DNA from: an uncultured Candidatus Saccharibacteria bacterium
GTDB taxonomy: Bacteria; Patescibacteriota; Saccharimonadia; Saccharimonadales; UBA4665
NCBI GenBank assembly: GCA_903836325.1
Contig: CAILQE010000002.1
Span: 1-56,708, forward strand
Reading direction: 5' to 3'
DNA length: 56,708 nt
Shown here one piece after another: positions 27,965 through 56,708 of this stretch. How positions within the stretch are numbered: position 1 is the first letter of the stretch; each line of letters starts with the position of its first letter. The position numbers and the translations under genes were made by a program. The notes beneath the pieces were generated by a model that was not told the DNA's origin, made no database searches, and saw only the letters and a program-made list of their open reading frames with translations.

Positions 27965-30853
27965 TTATAGCTTTTCTAGAGCTATCGTAACCTCAAAGTC
28001 GTTTACCTTGTAGTTCTTAGAGAATCCGCCTTTTAATTCATCCCTTATTTCTAGAGTTAAGGTATCAGCCATTATCAAATTCTTCATATATTCGTTTTCA
28101 AGTACTGACTTTAATAGATTGGAATCTGATTGAATTTGTAGAACTATTCTATCATCAACAATTAATCCAGCTTCTTTCCTGGCTTGCTGAATATTTCTTA
28201 TCAATTCCCTAGCGACACCCTCTTGGATTAATTCATCATTCAAATTAAGATCTATCTCTACTCTAGTTTTCAGAGAACTATCTTCTATTACATCTTTAAC
28301 ATTTAATTCTTCTTGGATAATTTTTAATAGGCTATCATTATTTAATTTAGAAGATATTTTAACTGAACTAAGCGGCTGTCTTACTTTAACTGAGTTCTGA
28401 GCCCTAATACTTAACCCCTCGTTAATTATTTCTTTGACTTCGTCCATTAGAGTTATTGCGCCAGCATTAACGCTGCCGTGCTCTGGCCAATCAATAAGGT
28501 GAACTGATTTACCTTCTGTGAGCTTTATATAAAGCTCTTCTGCCATGAAAGGAGCAAAAGGTGCAATAATTATCGACAAATTAACTAATACGTAATGCAA
28601 GGTCTTATATGCGTCGGATTTATCCTTGTCATTATCGCTTTTCCAAAAGCGCTTTCTACTTCTTCTTACATACCAATTGCTAGCATCATCTAAGAACTGA
28701 AATAGCGGTTTTGTAGCTCCGGCAATATCGTATTTATCCATAGATTCAGTTACATCTTTATTTAATTGATGTAACTTACTAACTACCCATATATCTAAGA
28801 TGTTATCTAGTTCTTTTGAAGGATCCTTAGGTAATTCTCCTTTTTCTAGACCACTATCCCATTTATCAACATCGGCATACATAGTAAAGAAGTCATACAT
28901 ATTCCAAATCATATTGAGTTTTCTCAACACATCACTAACTTCTCTATCTGTTAAAGCGAAGCTTTCTCCATTTGTTAACGGACTTGTTAACATCAAGTAT
29001 CTAAATGAATCTGCTGAGAAATTATCCATTAAAATCATTGGGTCAGTGTAGTTTCCAAGTTTTTTACTGAGCTTTTTGCCGTCTGCAGCATTAATATGAC
29101 CAGTACAAATTAGATTAACGAATGGTGATTTGTTAAATAAACCAACATTTACAGCAGTTAAACTATAGAACCATCCCCTAGTTTGATCAATTGCTTCACA
29201 AATAAAATCTGCTGGGAAACTATCCTCAAACTTTTGCTTATTTTCAAAAGGATAATGAAATTGAGCGAAAGGCATAGATCCTGATTCGAACCAACAATCT
29301 ATAACTTTACCGATGTGTTTTAGAATAGTTCCGTCATATTCGAATTCAATATTCATTACATTCGGTAAATGATAGTCGTCTAGACTTAAGCCTGTTAAGT
29401 CTTTCAATTCTTCATAAGATCCAATTATTTTAATTACTTCGGTTCCGTCATTTCGGACACCTTTCCATACGGGTAGAGGTGTTGCCCAGTATCTATCGCG
29501 GCTAATATTCCAGTCAGGTGCAGTTTCTAAAATATTCTTAAATCTACCTTCTTGTAGATGTTTAGGGTTCCAAGAAGTCATCTCGTTAGCTTCAAGCATT
29601 TCTTTCTTTTGTGATTGTATATCCACAAACCAGCTTGGATGAGCTCGATACATTAACTTAGTTCCACATCTGTGACAGTGAGGATATTCATGTCTAATAT
29701 ATTCAACTTTTAGAGCAGTTCCCTCAGCAACCAATGTTTTCGCGATTTCTTTATTTATATCCCAAATATTCTCACCTATCCATCGGCCTTCTGTGTAGTG
29801 ACCATTTTCGTCAACAATTGAAACTAATGGAACATTTTCAGCCTTACATAAGTCATAATCTTCCTCACCGTAAGCAGGTGCTTCGTGTACAATTCCTGTT
29901 CCCGCGTCTGCACTAACAAAATCTGCAGCTAAAACTCGGTGAGCATTGGGGCCATGATTCTGAAAAAGAGGTTCATATTTTTTACCTACTAATTCTTTAC
30001 CTTTTACTTCTTTAAGTTTCGTATAGTTTAAAAGTTTGTGTTTTTCATCGGTCATTACTCTTTCGATTGCTTCATTTCCGATATAGAATTTCTTTCCTTC
30101 GTATTCTATTAATGAGTAGCTTAGTTTTTCATTAACAGCTATAGCAACGTTTGCAGGTAAAGTCCAAGGGGTTGTGGTCCATGCAAGTACGTATTCGTCA
30201 CTACCTTCTAGCTTAAAGAATACGTATACGCTTGGATCTGTATCCATCTGATAACTATTTTCCATAGCAACCTCAGACTTACTGATCGGTGTTGCGTCCT
30301 TAGTGCAATAAACTAGAATCTTTTCACCTTCGTAAATCCGTCCTTTGTCATAAAGCTCTTTAAAAGCCCACCATACTGATTCCATGTACTCTTTATCCAT
30401 GGTCTTATATGCGCCCTCAAATTCTACCCAGCGACCAATTCTATCTATAACATCTTCCCATTCGGTACCAGTCTTAACCATTGCATCACGACATTCGCGC
30501 ACATAGTCTTCAATACTAATTTTTGTTCCAATTTCTTTTTTATTCTTAATTCCAAGTTTTTTCTCGACGAAAACTTCAGCAGGAAGACCGTGGCAATCCC
30601 AACCCCATTTTCTTTCTACCCTATATCCCCGCATAGTCCAATATCTAGCTACGGCATCCTTTAATGTAGATATTAACAAGTGGCCATGGTGTGGTTTTCC
30701 GGTGATAAAAGGTGGACCATCATAAAAAACAAAAGTTTTATCCTTGGGTCTGAAATCTACAGATTTTTCGAATAACTTATGATTTTTCCAATAATTAAGA
30801 ATATCTTTTTCGTATTCTATTGGTTTTTTTCTTTGTCCTTGTTGATACTTCAT
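27965..30853 (-). CDS. ileS: Isoleucyl-tRNA synthetase
   Basis: 962 aa with HIGH (PHHGHLL), KMSKS-like (KLSKKLGN) and a CP1 editing domain. The N-terminal PPFITGKPHHGH resembles type-2 (eukaryote-like) IleRS. Confidence 0.97.
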   Translation of the reverse strand: MKYQQGQRKKPIEYEKDILNYWKNHKLFEKSVDFRPKDKTFVFYDGPPFITGKPHHGHLLISTLKDAVARYWTMRGYRVERKWGWDCHGLPAEVFVEKKLGIKNKKEIGTKISIEDYVRECRDAMVKTGTEWEDVIDRIGRWVEFEGAYKTMDKEYMESVWWAFKELYDKGRIYEGEKILVYCTKDATPISKSEVAMENSYQMDTDPSVYVFFKLEGSDEYVLAWTTTPWTLPANVAIAVNEKLSYSLIEYEGKKFYIGNEAIERVMTDEKHKLLNYTKLKEVKGKELVGKKYEPLFQNHGPNAHRVLAADFVSADAGTGIVHEAPAYGEEDYDLCKAENVPLVSIVDENGHYTEGRWIGENIWDINKEIAKTLVAEGTALKVEYIRHEYPHCHRCGTKLMYRAHPSWFVDIQSQKKEMLEANEMTSWNPKHLQEGRFKNILETAPDWNISRDRYWATPLPVWKGVRNDGTEVIKIIGSYEELKDLTGLSLDDYHLPNVMNIEFEYDGTILKHIGKVIDCWFESGSMPFAQFHYPFENKQKFEDSFPADFICEAIDQTRGWFYSLTAVNVGLFNKSPFVNLICTGHINAADGKKLSKKLGNYTDPMILMDNFSADSFRYLMLTSPLTNGESFALTDREVSDVLRKLNMIWNMYDFFTMYADVDKWDSGLEKGELPKDPSKELDNILDIWVVSKLHQLNKDVTESMDKYDIAGATKPLFQFLDDASNWYVRRSRKRFWKSDNDKDKSDAYKTLHYVLVNLSIIIAPFAPFMAEELYIKLTEGKSVHLIDWPEHGSVNAGAITLMDEVKEIINEGLSIRAQNSVKVRQPLSSVKISSKLNNDSLLKIIQEELNVKDVIEDSSLKTRVEIDLNLNDELIQEGVARELIRNIQQARKEAGLIVDDRIVLQIQSDSNLLKSVLENEYMKNLIMADTLTLEIRDELKGGFSKNYKVNDFEVTIALEKL

Positions 30854-47918: not shown

Positions 47919-48372
47919 TCTAATTAATAAATTAGAGAAAAAATATTCTAAAATTAAATTTGAAGAATCAGATAAATTTTATTGGTCACCTTCTAAAGAA
48001 ATTGTTTATTACAACTCCAGCACTAAAGATATAGACTCTTCAAAATGGGCATTACTTCACGAAGTCGGACACGCCCTTCTTCAACATAAAGGCTATGATC
48101 AAGATTTTATATTACTTAGAATGGAAGTTTTAGCATGGGAAAAAGCTAAAAAAATATCTAAAAAATTTTCAGTAAAAATTGACGAAGATCATATTCAAGA
48201 TTGCTTAGACACATATAGAGATTGGATATACAAAAGAAGCTTATGTCCTAAATGTTCTACAATAAGTCTTCAAAATAATAAAGATAATAAGTATAGATGT
48301 TTCAATTGCTCTTCTGTCTGGCAAGTAACTTCATCTAAGTTTTGCCGTCCATATAGAACATTAGTTAAATAA
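47911..48372 (+). CDS. Putative zinc metalloprotease (ImmA/IrrE-like HExxH) with a C-terminal zinc ribbon
   Basis: LLHEVGHALLQH plus CPKC...CFNC. I start it at the ATG at 47911 (ATGGATGA overlap with the upstream stop) rather than the ORF-track 47878. Confidence 0.45.
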   Translation: MDDLINKLEKKYSKIKFEESDKFYWSPSKEIVYYNSSTKDIDSSKWALLHEVGHALLQHKGYDQDFILLRMEVLAWEKAKKISKKFSVKIDEDHIQDCLDTYRDWIYKRSLCPKCSTISLQNNKDNKYRCFNCSSVWQVTSSKFCRPYRTLVK

Positions 48373-48405
48373 AAAACCGGGATACTCGCAGTAATCCCGG
48401 TTTTG
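48371..48405. terminator. Bidirectional intrinsic terminator between convergent genes
   Basis: An A6 run, then stem AACCGGGAT / ATCCCGGTT (48375-48383 with 48394-48402) with a 10-nt loop, then a T-run. Confidence 0.7.
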
Positions 48406-48422
48406 TAATTACCTAAAATTAA

Positions 48423-48620
48423 TTAAGCAATAGTTTTGGTTCGACGAGAAATTCGTCCACCTTTAGCTCCAGCAGCTCTTGCTAAATCTCGATTAGCAAA
48501 GAAACCACCAGTTCGTCCTAATTTTCCACCTTTAGAACCTATTTTAGCGTAAAAATCAGCACCATACTTCTTCTTATTAGTAGCAGCTGCTGCTTGTCCG
48601 CCTTGTTTTGTTCCGGCCAT
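48423..48620 (-). CDS. KGG-repeat general stress protein (YciG/GsiB-like)
   Basis: 65 aa of Gly/Lys-rich repeats (SKGGKLG, AKGGRIS). Confidence 0.7.
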   Translation of the reverse strand: MAGTKQGGQAAAATNKKKYGADFYAKIGSKGGKLGRTGGFFANRDLARAAGAKGGRISRRTKTIA

Positions 48621-48765
48621 ATAAAGTCCTCCCTTATATTTAGTTATTTCGTAAAAATAAAAAGAGAGTCATCAAAAAAGATAACCCTCTTTCCTCTTAC
48701 GAATTAGATATATAATAACACGCTACTGTTTATAAGTCAATAGTGCTAAAGCATAGATTTAGTCT

Positions 48766-48797
48766 AAAAAGAAAAACAGTCTCCTTTTTGGAGACTG
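48766..48797 (-). terminator. Intrinsic terminator after 5S rRNA
   Basis: Stem CAGTCTCC / GGAGACTG (48777-48784 with 48790-48797) with a 5-nt loop. On the minus strand it is followed by UUUUUCUUUUU. Confidence 0.7.
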
Positions 48798-48807
48798 CTT
48801 TTATAAA

Positions 48808-48921
48808 TTGGCACCGTGCTATTTTCCCAGGGGTGAACCCCAAGTATTGTAACCGCTACGAGGCTTAACTGCTGTGTTCGGAATGGGAACAGGTGTTTCC
48901 CTCGTGCTATGGGCACCAAGT
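48808..48921 (-). rRNA. rrf: 5S ribosomal RNA
   Basis: The reverse complement reads UUGGUGCCCAUAGCACGAGGGAAACACCUGUUCCCAUUCCGAACACAGCAGUUAAGCC...GCACGGUGCCAA, with closing helix I. Confidence 0.9.
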
Positions 48922-49099
48922 AGGATCTTGTTTATACAAACAAAACCCTGTTGTTGTCCATAATCTGATATAAATATATTACTTTAAGTGATAATTTTAC
49001 TTTGACAAACGAACGCATTAATAATGACCAATGACCAGTCAAAATGCTACTTCTCACCAAAACTCATGTTAGATTTAAAACCATACATGGGTTTTGGTC

Positions 49100-52088
<2,989 letters not shown>

Positions 52089-52160
52089 TTAGTATGTATT
52101 AAACATACTCAAAGTGCAATTTGACTGGTCGTTGGTGATTACCAACAGCCGTTTGTCTTA

Positions 52161-52217
52161 AATTGCTTATCTCTAATATTTTCAATTATTTTCTAATTGC
52201 TTATCTCTAATATTTTC
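52161..52217. repeat. Perfect 23-bp direct repeat, two copies, 34-bp period
   Basis: AATTGCTTATCTCTAATATTTTC occurs at 52161-52183 and 52195-52217, in the leader just upstream (minus sense) of the 23S processing stem. Confidence 0.9.
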
Positions 52218-52240
52218 TTAAAATATTATATTTATTCAAA

Positions 52241-52250
52241 TTGTTAAGTT
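52241..52250 (-). promoter_or_regulatory. boxA-like antitermination element in the 23S leader
   Basis: The minus strand reads AACUUAACAAUUU, compared with E. coli rrn boxA CUCUUUAACAAUUU (one U shorter). Confidence 0.3.
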
Positions 52251-52381
52251 TCTAAACCGAAGGACTTAGCTAAATTAAATGAAAATCAATTAATTTGGCC
52301 CCGCCCTTGAGTTTACGATTATGGCTTAATTTGGGGTTACTTTCCCGTTTAAGACTTTACCTAAACTCAAGTTGTCAAACA

Positions 52382-52410
52382 ATAATATCAATTTTAACAG
52401 ATATAGTCAA
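52382..52410 (-). promoter_or_regulatory. Promoter-like element upstream of 23S-5S (TTGACT-17-TATTAT)
   Basis: On the minus strand the -35 is at 52410-52405 and the -10 at 52387-52382, with exactly 17 nt between them. It lies back-to-back with the tRNA promoter about 100 bp away. Confidence 0.45.
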
Positions 52411-52509
52411 TACTCCTATGATGTCTTTGTTGCAACAGTTTGGATACTAATAACGAACGAAATACGAATTTATATTAGGATCAATTTATAAACATTTTAC
52501 ACTCTACTC

Positions 52510-52538
52510 TTGTCTGATTGATGTTTTTTCGGTAAAAT
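52510..52538 (+). promoter_or_regulatory. Promoter-like element for the plus-strand tRNA-Ala/tRNA-Ile unit (TTGTCT-17-TAAAAT)
   Basis: -35 at 52510-52515 and -10 at 52533-52538 with a 17-nt spacer. The -10 ends 23 nt before tRNA-Ala. Confidence 0.45.
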
Positions 52539-52561
52539 ACATCGGTAGTTATTTATAACTT

Positions 52562-52638
52562 GGGGCATTAGCTCAGTTGGCTAGAGCGCCTGCTTTGCAA
52601 GCAGGAGGTCATCGGTTCGAGCCCGATATGCTCCACCA
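52562..52638 (+). tRNA. tRNA-Ala (anticodon UGC), CCA encoded
   Basis: Hand-folded cloverleaf: acceptor GGGGCAT/ATGCTCC with the G3:U70 identity pair, anticodon loop TTTGCAA and T arm ATCGG-TTCGAGC-CCGAT. It folds only on the plus strand. Confidence 0.95.
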
Positions 52639-52658
52639 CCATTTAGATAACTATACAA

Positions 52659-52735
52659 GGGCGATTAGCTCAGTTGGTTAGAGCGCGTCACTGATAATGA
52701 CGAGGTCGGAGGTTCGAGTCCCTCATCGCCCACCA
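52659..52735 (+). tRNA. tRNA-Ile (anticodon GAU), CCA encoded
   Basis: Acceptor GGGCGAT/ATCGCCC, anticodon stem CGTCA/TGACG, loop CTGATAA and discriminator A. The T stem GGAGG/CCCTC contains one A-C mismatch and one G-U pair in my fold. Confidence 0.88.
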
Positions 52736-52750
52736 TTTATATAAAGACTT

Positions 52751-52779
52751 AAATCCATCAATCTTAGATGGATTTTTTT
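52751..52779 (+). terminator. Intrinsic terminator after tRNA-Ile
   Basis: Stem AAATCCATC / GATGGATTT (52751-52759 with 52767-52775) and a 7-nt loop, running into a T-tract. Confidence 0.7.
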
Positions 52780-52999
52780 ATTACACAAAAAATTAAGATC
52801 AAATAAAAAAGCTCCACTGATTAACAGAAGAGCTTCTTCTTAACAACTTATGTAGTGCAACAACGTTAGAACGTATATTCAGTGACTGAATTATCGACTG
52901 AGTTTTCAGCTTATAATAAGTTGTCAGTACTGATAAAAAACAACTTATCGATATCGACCTAGCTCACCAATGATTGCTCATTAGTTGCTAGTTTATCTC

Positions 53000-54478
<1,479 letters not shown>

Positions 54479-54534
54479 ATTTGTTCTCTTATAAAACAAT
54501 TCAAAATGAACTGACGTTGATTGCACTACATAAA

Positions 54535-54546
54535 TTGTTAAAGGTC
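54535..54546 (-). promoter_or_regulatory. boxA antitermination element in the 16S leader
   Basis: The minus strand reads GACCUUUAACAAUUUAUG, compared with E. coli rrn boxA GCUCUUUAACAAUUUAUC (10 of 12 in the core). Confidence 0.5.
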
Positions 54547-54593
54547 AAAATTTTTCTAGGAGTATCTAAACGACCTCCTGAAAGACTCCGTTT

Positions 54594-54623
54594 ATTCTAT
54601 ATTAAATATGGCAAAAATGTCAA
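54594..54623 (-). promoter_or_regulatory. rRNA promoter P1 (TTGACA-18-TAGAAT)
   Basis: On the minus strand the -35 is at 54623-54618 and the -10 at 54599-54594. It lies just after the gyrA stop and about 110 nt upstream of the mature 16S. Confidence 0.5.
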
Positions 54624-54641
54624 CACTTATTACCAATTATC

Positions 54642-56708
54642 TTATAGTTCTTCGATTTCTTCGTCATTTTTATCAATTAATGTCAGTGAGACTACTTCAT
54701 CTCCATCATTAATTCTCATGATTCTAACACCTTGAGTAGCTCTTCCTAACTGAGGAATATCCTTCAATCCAAGTCTAATAGCCTGTCCCTGTTGTGAAAT
54801 TATCAGAACTTCTTGATTGTCTTCTTTTCCTAGGGTTTTAACTCCAACCAATTGACCAGTTTTTGTATTAACAACAGCTGATCTAATTCCAACTCCACCT
54901 CGTGAGTGTGCTGTAAATTGAGATATTTTTGTTCGCTTACCGTATCCATATTTACTAATTACAAATATATCTGAGTTTTCTTCAACGATATCCATTCCAA
55001 TGACGTGATCATCTTTTCGTAGTCTTATTCCTCTAACACCTCTACTAACCCTTCCCATAGGCCGTGCGTCCTTCTCATGGAATCTTATTGCCTGACCTTG
55101 GGAGGTAGAAATTACTACTTCATTGCTACCATTTGTCATTCTTATCCATTTAAGCTCATCGCCTTCGTCTAGATTTATAGCTATAAGACCAGAGCTTCTT
55201 ACGTTTGCATATTGTTCAAATGGAGTCTTTTTTACTACACCCTTAACCGTACACATGATTAGATTGGCTGCTTGATCAGTCTTATTGATATTTAGAACAG
55301 AGCTAACAACCTCTTCTGGCTGTAACTGCAGTAAGTTTACTAATGCAACACCTTTTGCGCTTAGCAATGTAGATGGAAGTTCGTAGGTCTTCATTCTAAA
55401 GACTCTACCCTTATTGGTAAAGAATAGTAAGAAGTCATGAGTAGAAGCATTAACAACATGCTCTATGTTGTCTTCTTCTCTTGTAACCATTCCTCTTCTT
55501 CCTTTTCCACCTCTTCCTTGTTTCTTGTAGTCAACAATAGATGTTCTCTTGATGTAATTAGCGGCGGTAAGAGTAACTACTACCTGTTCGTCTGCGATTA
55601 GGTCTTCGTCGCTTAATTTTCCAAGTTCAGAATTCACAACTTTAGTTCTTCTCTCGTCAGCATACGTCTTCTTAACTTCTTCTAGTTCATCTTTAATAAT
55701 CTGTAAAATCTTAGTTTCATCAGCAAGAATGGCTTCTAGTTCAGCTACCAACTTTAGAAGATCGGCTAATTCATTCTCTATATCTTTTCGGTCTAGGCCA
55801 GTAAGTCTTCTTAACTGCATAGCTAGGATAGCTCTACATTGTATCTCGGTTAATTTAAACTCTTTTATTAGGTTTGCTAGTGCTTCATCATAGGTCTCGG
55901 ACGCTCTAATTGTTGCAATTACTGCATCAATGTTATCTAAAGCTATCTTAAGACCTTCGAGTATATGCGCTCTCTCTTTTGCCTTCCTTAATTCATACTC
56001 GGTTCTTCTTCGAACAACTACTTGTCGATGTTTAATGTGCTCTTTGATGATGTCCTGTAGTCCAAGTATTCTTGGTTGGATGCCATCTATAAGAGCTAGC
56101 ATGTTGAAATGGAAAGTAGATTGAAGTGGAGTTAGTTTGAATAATTGATTTAATAACTTGTTAGCAAAAGCATCTTTCTTAAGATCTATTACTATTTTTA
56201 CATCACCTCTAGAACTTTCGTCTCTAATATCTGATATGCCTACAATTTTCTTGTCGTGTACTAAATCCGCAATCTTAGTAATCAAGGATTCTTTGTTTAA
56301 GCTATAAGGGATCTCAGTAATAACAATCTGATCTCTTTTCTTTCCTTCACCACTTACAACTTCTGCAACACCTCTAGTTACAACTCCACCCCTACCTGTT
56401 GCGTATGCAGTTTTTATGGATTCTTTACCATATATAACTCCTCCTGTTGGGAAGTCAGGTCCTTTAACGAATTCAAGTAAATCATCTAGGACTGCATTTT
56501 CATTATTAATCTGGAAAATAGTAGCATCAATAATCTCGCCTAGATTATGTGGCGGGATATTTGTGGCCATACCAACTGCAATACCTAGCTGTCCGTTTAA
56601 AAGTAGATTAGGAACTTTTGCCGGTAGAACCACAGGTTCCTGAAGTCTACCGTCGTAGTTTTCTCTAAAATCAACAGTTTCTTTATCTATATCAACAAGC
56701 AACTCTTC
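54642..56708 (-). CDS. gyrA: DNA gyrase subunit A (N-terminus lies beyond the window end)
   Basis: The frame is open to the window edge. GyrA motifs include NGQLGIAVGMATNIPPHNL and the repeated C-terminal beta-pinwheel blades (GVRGIRL, GVRIMRI). The Met at 56702 is internal. Confidence 0.95.
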   Translation of the reverse strand, partial: EELLVDIDKETVDFRENYDGRLQEPVVLPAKVPNLLLNGQLGIAVGMATNIPPHNLGEIIDATIFQINNENAVLDDLLEFVKGPDFPTGGVIYGKESIKTAYATGRGGVVTRGVAEVVSGEGKKRDQIVITEIPYSLNKESLITKIADLVHDKKIVGISDIRDESSRGDVKIVIDLKKDAFANKLLNQLFKLTPLQSTFHFNMLALIDGIQPRILGLQDIIKEHIKHRQVVVRRRTEYELRKAKERAHILEGLKIALDNIDAVIATIRASETYDEALANLIKEFKLTEIQCRAILAMQLRRLTGLDRKDIENELADLLKLVAELEAILADETKILQIIKDELEEVKKTYADERRTKVVNSELGKLSDEDLIADEQVVVTLTAANYIKRTSIVDYKKQGRGGKGRRGMVTREEDNIEHVVNASTHDFLLFFTNKGRVFRMKTYELPSTLLSAKGVALVNLLQLQPEEVVSSVLNINKTDQAANLIMCTVKGVVKKTPFEQYANVRSSGLIAINLDEGDELKWIRMTNGSNEVVISTSQGQAIRFHEKDARPMGRVSRGVRGIRLRKDDHVIGMDIVEENSDIFVISKYGYGKRTKISQFTAHSRGGVGIRSAVVNTKTGQLVGVKTLGKEDNQEVLIISQQGQAIRLGLKDIPQLGRATQGVRIMRINDGDEVVSLTLIDKNDEEIEEL

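Follow-up and report, generated by a model that had tools for sequence, protein, structure and literature searches.

How are the ribosomal RNA (rRNA) genes of a bacterium transcribed when the transfer RNA (tRNA) genes lying between them are read from the opposite strand? Co-transcription of 16S, 23S and 5S rRNA is the textbook means of keeping the amounts of these molecules balanced, and the known exceptions have been recognised mostly by the physical distance between the genes. The question is raised here by the rRNA locus of an uncultured Candidatus Saccharibacteria bacterium (assembly GCA_903836325.1, contig CAILQE010000002.1, positions 1 to 56,708; this whole stretch of 56,708 nt is called the window), in which tRNA-Ala and tRNA-Ile stand between 16S and 23S in antisense orientation. 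Judged from predicted signals and their conservation among relatives, the locus is probably made of three adjacent autonomous transcription units, namely 16S, a tRNA cassette and 23S-5S, and the cassette would have been inverted once, en bloc, in the ancestor of the clade to which the window belongs. Most of the interest of this result lies in a pattern of the whole class rather than in one window. The genes concerned are the following.

53005-54474, minus strand: 16S rRNA gene, full length (Rfam RF00177, 1494 bits)
52562-52638, plus strand: tRNA-Ala(TGC), CCA encoded, G3:U70 (ARAGORN; Rfam 52562-52635, 70.1 bits)
52659-52735, plus strand: tRNA-Ile(GAT), CCA encoded (ARAGORN; Rfam 52659-52732, 68.7 bits)
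49099-52085, minus strand: 23S rRNA gene (Rfam RF02541, 2614 bits)
48806-48920, minus strand: 5S rRNA gene (Rfam RF00001, 91.8 bits)

An initial annotation, made from the letters of the window, had placed the three rRNA genes on the minus strand and the two tRNA genes on the plus strand; Rfam and ARAGORN confirmed this, and direct reading of the sequence gave the G3:U70 pair, the anticodon loops TTTGCAA (tRNA-Ala) and CTGATAA (tRNA-Ile) and the encoded CCA that it had described. By cloverleaf, anticodon and identity elements both tRNAs qualify as functional elongators, and they show signs of purifying selection, with tRNA-Ala identical and tRNA-Ile changed by one substitution in L067, the corresponding locus of a different species. 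The 16S-23S spacer measures 919 nt by the Rfam positions and holds both tRNA genes; the ORF list shows no open reading frame (ORF) of 60 aa or more in it, and an Rfam search of the spacer at a permissive E-value returned, besides the tRNAs and the rRNA ends, sub-threshold chance matches only. On the upstream side, gyrA adjoins 16S directly. Measured against a canonical rrn operon, the locus has the leader-trailer helices of 16S and 23S and the boxA elements, whereas its genes are divided between the two strands and, according to sequence prediction and conservation, further promoters and terminators lie between the promoter of 16S and the end of 5S.

The antisense orientation might have arisen in the computer, from a mis-joined or inverted spacer, a possibility that the initial annotation had itself raised and for which nothing speaks beyond the assumed metagenomic origin of the window, whose rpsA product had no exact match on record. 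Against it stands a contig from a separate metagenome assembly of the same species (L131, Ga0194059_1011659), which differs from window positions 52332-55537 by 4 mismatches in 3206 nt (99.875% identity); this contig covers gyrA, 16S, both tRNAs and the 23S promoter, includes both junctions on the 16S side and extends past the 23S promoter. Moreover, L067 (98% 16S identity and 93% identity over 6.8 kb) is collinear with window positions 48367-55092, starting at 16S and continuing past 5S, and its tRNAs have unchanged offsets; the layout is found in 18 further loci. These comparisons exclude an artefact for any practical purpose, and we regard its probability as negligible.

The relatives were collected in two scans: genomes, a single representative for each GTDB species, were scanned with a pattern from the 16S 3' end, and public metagenome contigs with a more specific version of it. 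The first genome pattern also matched Fusobacteria and Mesoplasma, so that about half of its 119 rows were noise; extension of the pattern into the trailer (TCTAGGGAG) removed most of the noise in the metagenome scan. In the 16S tree the window, L067, L086, L100, L104 and L027 form a clade with 100% bootstrap support, and all six members have the antisense layout, although their 16S sequences have diverged to about 94% identity. This tree was built with bootstrap from a query-anchored alignment, since a first neighbour-joining tree, for which the 1480 nt preceding the 16S 3' end had been used, suffered distortion from insertions within some of the 16S genes. Long insertions are indeed present in the 16S genes of several relatives (e.g. 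L034, L050, L059, L088, L096 and L104), with a MAFFT alignment of 3697 columns; insertions and introns in rRNA genes of the Candidate Phyla Radiation (CPR) have already been described.

A comparison of the window with L067 also indicates which parts of the spacer are maintained. The tRNAs, the tRNA and 23S promoters, the TGTTGCAAC box described below, the leader elements and both terminator stems are conserved, while about 80 nt between the divergent tRNA and 23S promoters are scrambled. Conserved signals amid a scrambled spacer are the pattern expected of functional elements in neutral spacer. The signals predicted for the tRNA unit are these.

52510-52550, plus strand: promoter of the tRNA unit (-35 TTGTCT at 52510-52515, T-rich 17-nt spacer, -10 TAAAAT at 52533-52538)
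52539-52550, plus strand: conserved element ACATCGGTAGTT after the -10, kept at the same position in at least 30 related loci
52751-52782, plus strand: predicted intrinsic terminator of the tRNA unit, a hairpin of 9 bp with T7 after it; the 16S terminator faces it at a distance of about 20 nt

Across the class the first spacer tRNA is preceded by the motif cTTGTnn-N17-TA(A/G)AAT-ACnnCGGTAGTT, in which N17 holds a T-rich stretch. When 4-kb stretches downstream of 16S were scanned on both strands, in the related loci and the window, with a strict core pattern consisting of the -10 hexamer and the element that follows it, 36 matches were obtained, 35 of them correctly oriented and located 17-154 nt before tRNA-Ala or tRNA-Ile. 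These 35 matches span the antisense, Ala-Ile and Ile-Ala layouts, all three of which were present in that genome sample. Column conservation reaches 0.81 in the -35, 0.94 in the -10 and 0.87 in the 12 nt after the -10, compared with about 0.4 in the flanks. In a wider sample, a -35/-10 pair was found at most 170 nt before the first tRNA in 99/124 loci, as against 5/124 shuffles, and among loci with the antisense layout in 18 of 19. The exact core occurs once in the window, 23 nt ahead of tRNA-Ala; a copy with one mismatch (29308-29322, minus strand) lies inside a 962-aa ORF and was taken as chance. The 12 nt after the -10 (ACnnCGGTAGTT) are absent from the 16S and 23S promoters, and they are a candidate start-site or discriminator element or a candidate regulator site. 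In one relative, L101, 656 nt separate tRNA-Ala from tRNA-Ile, and a separate promoter copy stands ahead of each (minus-strand scan positions 1582 and 2310 of a 3.7-kb stretch downstream of 16S), which shows the promoter to be modular. At the other end of the unit, the 9-bp hairpin with T-tract that had been reported after tRNA-Ile is present (52751-52775, then seven T; -10.3 kcal/mol, z-score -3.4). Its stem is kept in L067 while its loop has diverged, and a hairpin with a T-tract, of unrelated sequence, follows the second tRNA in many relatives, those with co-oriented layouts included.

It could be objected that the two tRNA genes are decaying relics, that functional copies exist elsewhere and that the motif upstream of them serves something else. 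Copies elsewhere are conceivable, as just 56.7 kb of the genome is visible. Nevertheless, the tRNAs score high (about 70 bits) with identity elements and CCA intact, they have stayed nearly or wholly unchanged relative to L067 while the adjoining spacer was scrambled, and the promoter motif accompanies the tRNAs however they are oriented and placed, down to the two copies of L101. We consider decay very unlikely, and a working tRNA unit with its own predicted signals the better description.

On the minus strand, the 16S gene is accompanied by a set of predicted signals of its own.

54594-54623, minus strand: 16S promoter, TTGACA-18-TAGAAT, 11/12 hexamer matches
54532-54550, minus strand: boxA-like element of the 16S leader, CTTTAACAATTT, repeated in the 23S leader and kept as TTAAAAATTGA in relatives
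54521-54541, minus strand: 5' arm of the 16S leader-trailer helix, pairing with 52840-52860 over 21 nt (95% complementarity; inverted-repeat search)
52840-52860, minus strand: 3' arm of this 16S helix, located upstream of the terminator of the unit
52800-52839, minus strand: predicted intrinsic terminator of the 16S unit, an interrupted hairpin followed by UUUUUUAUUU (fold and conservation)

Of 26 related loci whose upstream sequence was long enough, 20 have a TTGAC(A/C/T)-17/18-TAnnAT site at a similar distance before 16S. Because the 3' arm of the helix is upstream of the terminator, the 16S unit is self-contained. The initial annotation had seen the hairpin after 16S but had called it weak; the hairpin and its U-rich tail are there, and the qualification does not hold, since the structure at about 52809-52835, followed by U6, folds with -17.3 kcal/mol (z-score -3.6). 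In L067 its stem carries a compensatory double change from G-C to A-T that keeps the pairing. An intrinsic terminator was found after 16S in 115/125 related loci compared with 18/125 shuffles (92% vs 14%), and this was so in each layout (60/64 Ala+ Ile+, 33/38 Ile+ Ala+, 19/19 Ile- Ala- and 3/3 Ala- Ile-, where 16S is taken as the plus strand). The search was fold-based and covered the 16S strand from 60 nt past the 16S end to the first tRNA, with a shuffle control; it superseded an earlier finder of perfect stems, which missed interrupted stems including that of the window. In several relatives one A-tract/hairpin/T-tract element serves both convergent units, whereas two facing hairpins are present in the window and in L067. 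When whole leaders were folded against trailers as RNA duplexes, the outcome was uninformative, with long AT-rich pairings barely above shuffles, and the clean helices came from the inverted-repeat search.

A comparable set is predicted for 23S and 5S.

52382-52410, minus strand: 23S-5S promoter, TTGACT-17-TATTAT with extended -10 TG, divergent from the tRNA promoter about 100 bp away
52429-52437, minus strand: conserved box TGTTGCAAC (TGTAGCAA in most relatives), separated by about 20 nt from the -35 of the 23S promoter, on its upstream side
52306-52372, minus strand: conserved 23S leader hairpin, CTTGAGTTTAG ... TAAACTCAAG, both arms kept in 13 loci, interior variable
52238-52256, minus strand: boxA-like element of the 23S leader, ACTTAACAATTT, a repeat of 54532-54550
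52161-52183 and 52195-52217, minus strand: two exact 23-nt copies, 11 nt apart, in the 23S leader; they contain GAGATAAGCAATT and are also found in L067
52116-52141, minus strand: 5' arm of the 23S leader-trailer helix, pairing with 49022-49047 over 26 nt (88% complementarity)
49022-49047, minus strand: 3' arm of the 23S leader-trailer helix (inverted-repeat search)
48772-48802, minus strand: terminator of the 23S-5S unit (-18.2 kcal/mol, z-score -6.8)

All 13 genome loci with a linked 23S, those with canonical layouts included, have TTGAC(C/T)-17-TATnAT before 23S, mostly with TGn. Next come the leader hairpin, likewise conserved, then a boxA-like element and the 5' half of the helix that encloses 23S. 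The wider sample showed a -35/-10 pair before 23S in 39/57 loci, as against 1/57 shuffles. The TGTTGCAAC box, found in 12 of the 13 loci and kept relative to L067 though the adjoining spacer has diverged, might be an UP-like element or a factor-binding site. Class-wide, GAGATAAGCAATT is single-copy and is conserved immediately before the 23S processing helix. Thus far the description given in the initial annotation stands: both promoters (TTGTCT-17-TAAAAT at 52510-52538 of the plus strand and TTGACT-17-TATTAT at 52410-52382 of the minus strand) are where it had put them, 16S and 23S each have a flanking helix, and the boxA-like element exists, as a repeat in both leaders. Its proposal that the locus runs as 16S, antisense tRNAs and 23S-5S is supported as well, since in many divergent Saccharibacteria the 16S terminator and the promoters of the tRNA unit and of 23S are conserved while their flanks vary.

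Taken together, these predictions suggest how the locus may be transcribed. RNA polymerase starting at 54623-54594 would pass through the boxA-like leader and 16S, the latter within its own helix, and stop at about 52839-52800. On the plus strand, the class-specific promoter at 52510-52550 would drive tRNA-Ala and tRNA-Ile up to the terminator at 52751-52782, and the promoter at 52410-52382 would drive the leader (hairpin, boxA-like element, helix), 23S and 5S up to the terminator at 48802-48772. The positions and strands of the genes, the reality and inheritance of the layout and the conservation of the signals are established; from sequence and conservation we infer that each promoter is active and that transcription ends at the terminators. 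Each rRNA leader-trailer helix is contained wholly in its own predicted unit.

The same locus might instead be essentially one operon, in which read-through from the 16S promoter, aided by boxA, yields a 16S-23S-5S precursor with antisense-tRNA sequence, the internal promoters merely top up, and the tRNA unit is a nested antisense gene. That 16S and 23S are co-oriented and just 919 nt apart, that boxA-like elements are present in both leaders and that the 16S terminator hairpin of the window has an internal mismatch all fit such an organisation. Antitermination of rrn transcription affects mainly Rho-dependent terminators, however, not intrinsic ones, and the hairpin with U-tract recurs at the same place after 16S in nearly all related loci, far above the shuffles, with its pairing preserved by compensatory change in L067. 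The 23S promoter is, moreover, strong and conserved (TTGACT, 17-nt spacer, extended -10), and read-through would yield RNA complementary to both tRNAs. Sister species also speak against a single operon, since in L027, L086, L100 and L104 protein genes, not 23S, lie downstream of the antisense cassette; 23S has moved away from 16S there, with the signals of both genes retained. The 16S-tRNA block and 23S-5S are therefore separable within the clade. Considering both sides, we find a single operon rather unlikely and prefer three units.

The region 700-4000 nt past the 16S 3' end in these four sister species holds a conserved gene for a protein of about 260-280 aa with a signal-like N-terminus, together with larger repeat-rich ORFs, which form a conserved set of predicted secreted-protein genes. 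No homologue of these proteins was found in the window.

Is the antisense cassette, then, what broke up the operon, and how did it come to be inverted? The layout of the spacer was compared in 125 Saccharibacteria-type loci with both tRNAs, for which the genome and metagenome samples were pooled without de-duplication. With 16S taken as the plus strand, the layouts are distributed as follows.

Ala+ Ile+: 64/125 loci, the commonest layout
Ile+ Ala+: 38/125 loci, the canonical layout
Ile- Ala-: 19/125 loci, the layout of the window
Ala- Ile-: 3/125 loci
Mixed: 1/125 loci

Since 19/125 loci carry it, the antisense layout is a recurring minority state of the class and not a one-off; besides the six members of the clade it is found in L077, L082, L101, L034/L118, L140, L168 and L169. 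The initial annotation had supposed that the antisense tRNAs split the operon, and this is contradicted by the relatives with co-oriented tRNAs, in which the same terminator and promoters are present. The split into 16S, tRNAs and 23S-5S is thus predicted to be class-wide and older than the inversion. In our judgement it permits the inversion rather than results from it.

It had also been argued that a single en-bloc inversion does not explain the order of the genes. This is correct for a canonical Ile-Ala ancestor but not for an Ala-Ile ancestor: one en-bloc inversion of a promoter-Ala-Ile-terminator cassette, starting from co-oriented Ala-Ile, gives exactly the layout of the window, and the co-oriented Ala-Ile cassettes, which make up just over half of the sample, carry the same promoter and a terminator of their own. 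The three Ala- Ile- loci are the matching flip of the canonical Ile-Ala cassette. As both orientations occur within the class, the cassette might be viewed as a programmed invertible element, a phase-variable switch operated by a site-specific recombinase. The inverted-repeat search, however, found no pair of repeats bracketing 52500-52790, the spacer has no ORF of 60 aa or more, and a single orientation is seen in two assemblies of the species and in all six members of the clade, at the level of assemblies rather than of reads. A switch is extremely improbable on these grounds; the inversion is old and inherited, given the lack of flanking inverted repeats and of a spacer ORF and the orientation fixed in the clade.

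Spacers of relatives contain other structured or partial elements. In nine loci (L009, L021, L022, L025, L028, L072, L077, L105 and L116; e.g. L077:1063-1097), though not in the window, a 35-nt hairpin stands beside tRNA-Ala, 3-4 nt past its 3' end in at least six of the nine; in L009, L028 and L072 the 12 nt shown upstream of the hairpin are not a tRNA 3' end. The stem of the hairpin is 13 bp long and its loop 5 nt, and it ends 3' in a single-stranded ACCA; it folds with about -20 kcal/mol and shows stem covariation between loci (C-G to U-A, G-C to A-U), and an Rfam search gave no matching family for it. Its GGGGG start and the pairing of G3 with U make it resemble the acceptor minihelix of tRNA-Ala, and it may be either an RNA processed to a minihelix or a tRNA-Ala duplicate that has been much reduced. 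In the Ala-Ile spacers of L025, L028, L072 and L105 there are also tRNA-Ile-like 5' (GGGCGATTAGCTCA...) and 3' (...AATGACGAGGTCGGAGGTTCGAGTCCCTCATCGCCCACCA) pieces, split by inserts or adjoining an intact tRNA-Ile. These pieces suggest interrupted or partly duplicated tRNA genes, and may be the trace of a duplication that swapped the order of Ile and Ala.

The history that we favour is that a three-promoter design is common to Saccharibacteria regardless of tRNA orientation, which would make the tRNA cassette (promoter, Ala, Ile, terminator) a free-standing module; from a co-oriented 16S-Ala-Ile-23S arrangement this module would have been inverted once en bloc in the ancestor of the clade, the inverted form then being inherited. 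Several points weigh against our interpretation. Promoter and terminator activity is predicted only, and hexamer matches alone are not evidence, since the 8-kb AT-rich region holds 15 promoter-like sites where shuffles give 14.1 by chance, so that the case rests on conservation in relatives. The hairpin of the tRNA unit is AT-rich and only moderately stable (-10.3 kcal/mol). The boxA-like elements after both rRNA promoters might recruit an antitermination complex and so allow some read-through of the 16S terminator. The two collections of loci, not having been de-duplicated, contain possible duplicates. Finally, the direction of the inversion, from co-oriented Ala-Ile to antisense, and the number of events are unproven because the deep nodes of the 16S tree have less than 60% bootstrap support.

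A broader proposition, which we regard as evenly balanced between right and wrong, is that throughout Saccharimonadia the rRNA operon has come apart, without its genes being moved, into three modules, each with a promoter and a terminator. The strongly conserved ACnnCGGTAGTT could then be a lineage-specific control point through which these tiny episymbionts adjust tRNA, 16S and 23S-5S output independently, and the tRNA module, because it is autonomous, would have been flipped in several lineages; all four order-and-strand layouts that are possible do occur. Surveys based on distance would miss an organisation of this kind.

With regard to the surroundings of the locus, plus-strand GC skew has negative values in 26 of 27 sliding windows across 1-56708 (mostly between about -0.05 and -0.2) and the minus strand carries most ORFs, so the minus strand is probably the leading strand, with the window on one replichore. 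By inference, replication would run in the direction of the rRNA genes and would meet the tRNA cassette head-on. Just past the 5S terminator lies a promoter-like site (48712-48740, minus strand; TTGACT-17-TATTAT with TG) whose hexamers equal those of the 23S promoter; beyond it come a second terminator-like hairpin and a 65-aa ORF with a KGG stress-protein repeat motif (further coordinates in this post-5S region are 48423-48620 and 48659-48694, both on the minus strand).

The nearest described analogue of the locus is that of Borrelia burgdorferi, an organism that is likewise host-dependent with a small genome, and in which the rRNA spacer is several kb long. In the report on it (PMC3037291), the gene order is rrs, tRNA-Ala, an opposite tRNA-Ile and rrlA-rrfA-rrlB-rrfB, all genes but tRNA-Ile having one orientation, and reverse-transcription PCR (RT-PCR) gives three transcripts, 16S-tRNA-Ala, tRNA-Ile and the two copies of 23S-5S. 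The two loci share a spacer tRNA opposite to the rRNAs and a division into three units, seen by RT-PCR there and predicted here. They differ in that tRNA-Ile alone is inverted in Borrelia, where tRNA-Ala is co-transcribed with 16S, whereas in the window a single inverted cassette contains both tRNAs and the predicted end of the 16S transcript lies ahead of them; in addition, 23S-5S is tandemly duplicated in Borrelia, while each gene of the window is single and the spacer is 919 nt long. Compared with an rrn operon of the E. coli type (16S, tRNA-Ile, tRNA-Ala, 23S, 5S, one precursor), the gene content, the leader-trailer helices and the boxA-like elements in leader and spacer are the same, but the tRNAs are on the opposite strand, a terminator is predicted after 16S, and the tRNAs and 23S have predicted promoters of their own.

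Physically separated rRNA genes have been surveyed by Brewer et al. (bioRxiv 10.1101/705046), who defined genes as unlinked when the spacer exceeds 1500 bp and flagged Patescibacteria as rich in them. The window resembles those cases in that 16S and 23S would be uncoupled in a reduced-genome or symbiotic lineage, and its sister species have protein genes after the 16S-tRNA block; yet at 919 nt its genes would be scored as linked, and the proposed uncoupling leaves them where they are and relies on a terminator and internal promoters. CPR spacers with tRNAs or protein genes, unlinked genes and 16S opposite to 23S were described by Lui, Nielsen and Arkin (PMC8172020); in their categories spacer tRNAs are mentioned on the same strand only, and antisense tRNAs between co-oriented 16S and 23S do not figure in their list. 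In oral Saccharibacteria, Murugkar et al. reported three tRNAs between 16S and 23S, the third usually Val, and the Ala-Ile-Val loci that we recovered agree with their report. We found no prior description of antisense spacer tRNAs or of internal rrn promoters in Saccharibacteria/TM7 in a literature search whose coverage was incomplete, with early TM7 genome papers outside it.

If our reading is true, a class of ultra-small, host-dependent bacteria appears to uncouple its rRNA genes while they remain adjacent, which would be a hidden form of operon fragmentation and raises the question of how the stoichiometry of the rRNAs is maintained. Such uncoupling would explain why the spacer tRNA cassette can be oriented either way without harm. 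In practical terms, primers for 16S-internal transcribed spacer-23S amplicons or for tRNA-anchored strain typing in Saccharibacteria have to accommodate four tRNA layouts, and operon predictions in the CPR should not presume a single rrn transcript. Moreover, the conserved promoter motifs are candidates for expression tools in cultivable Saccharibacteria.

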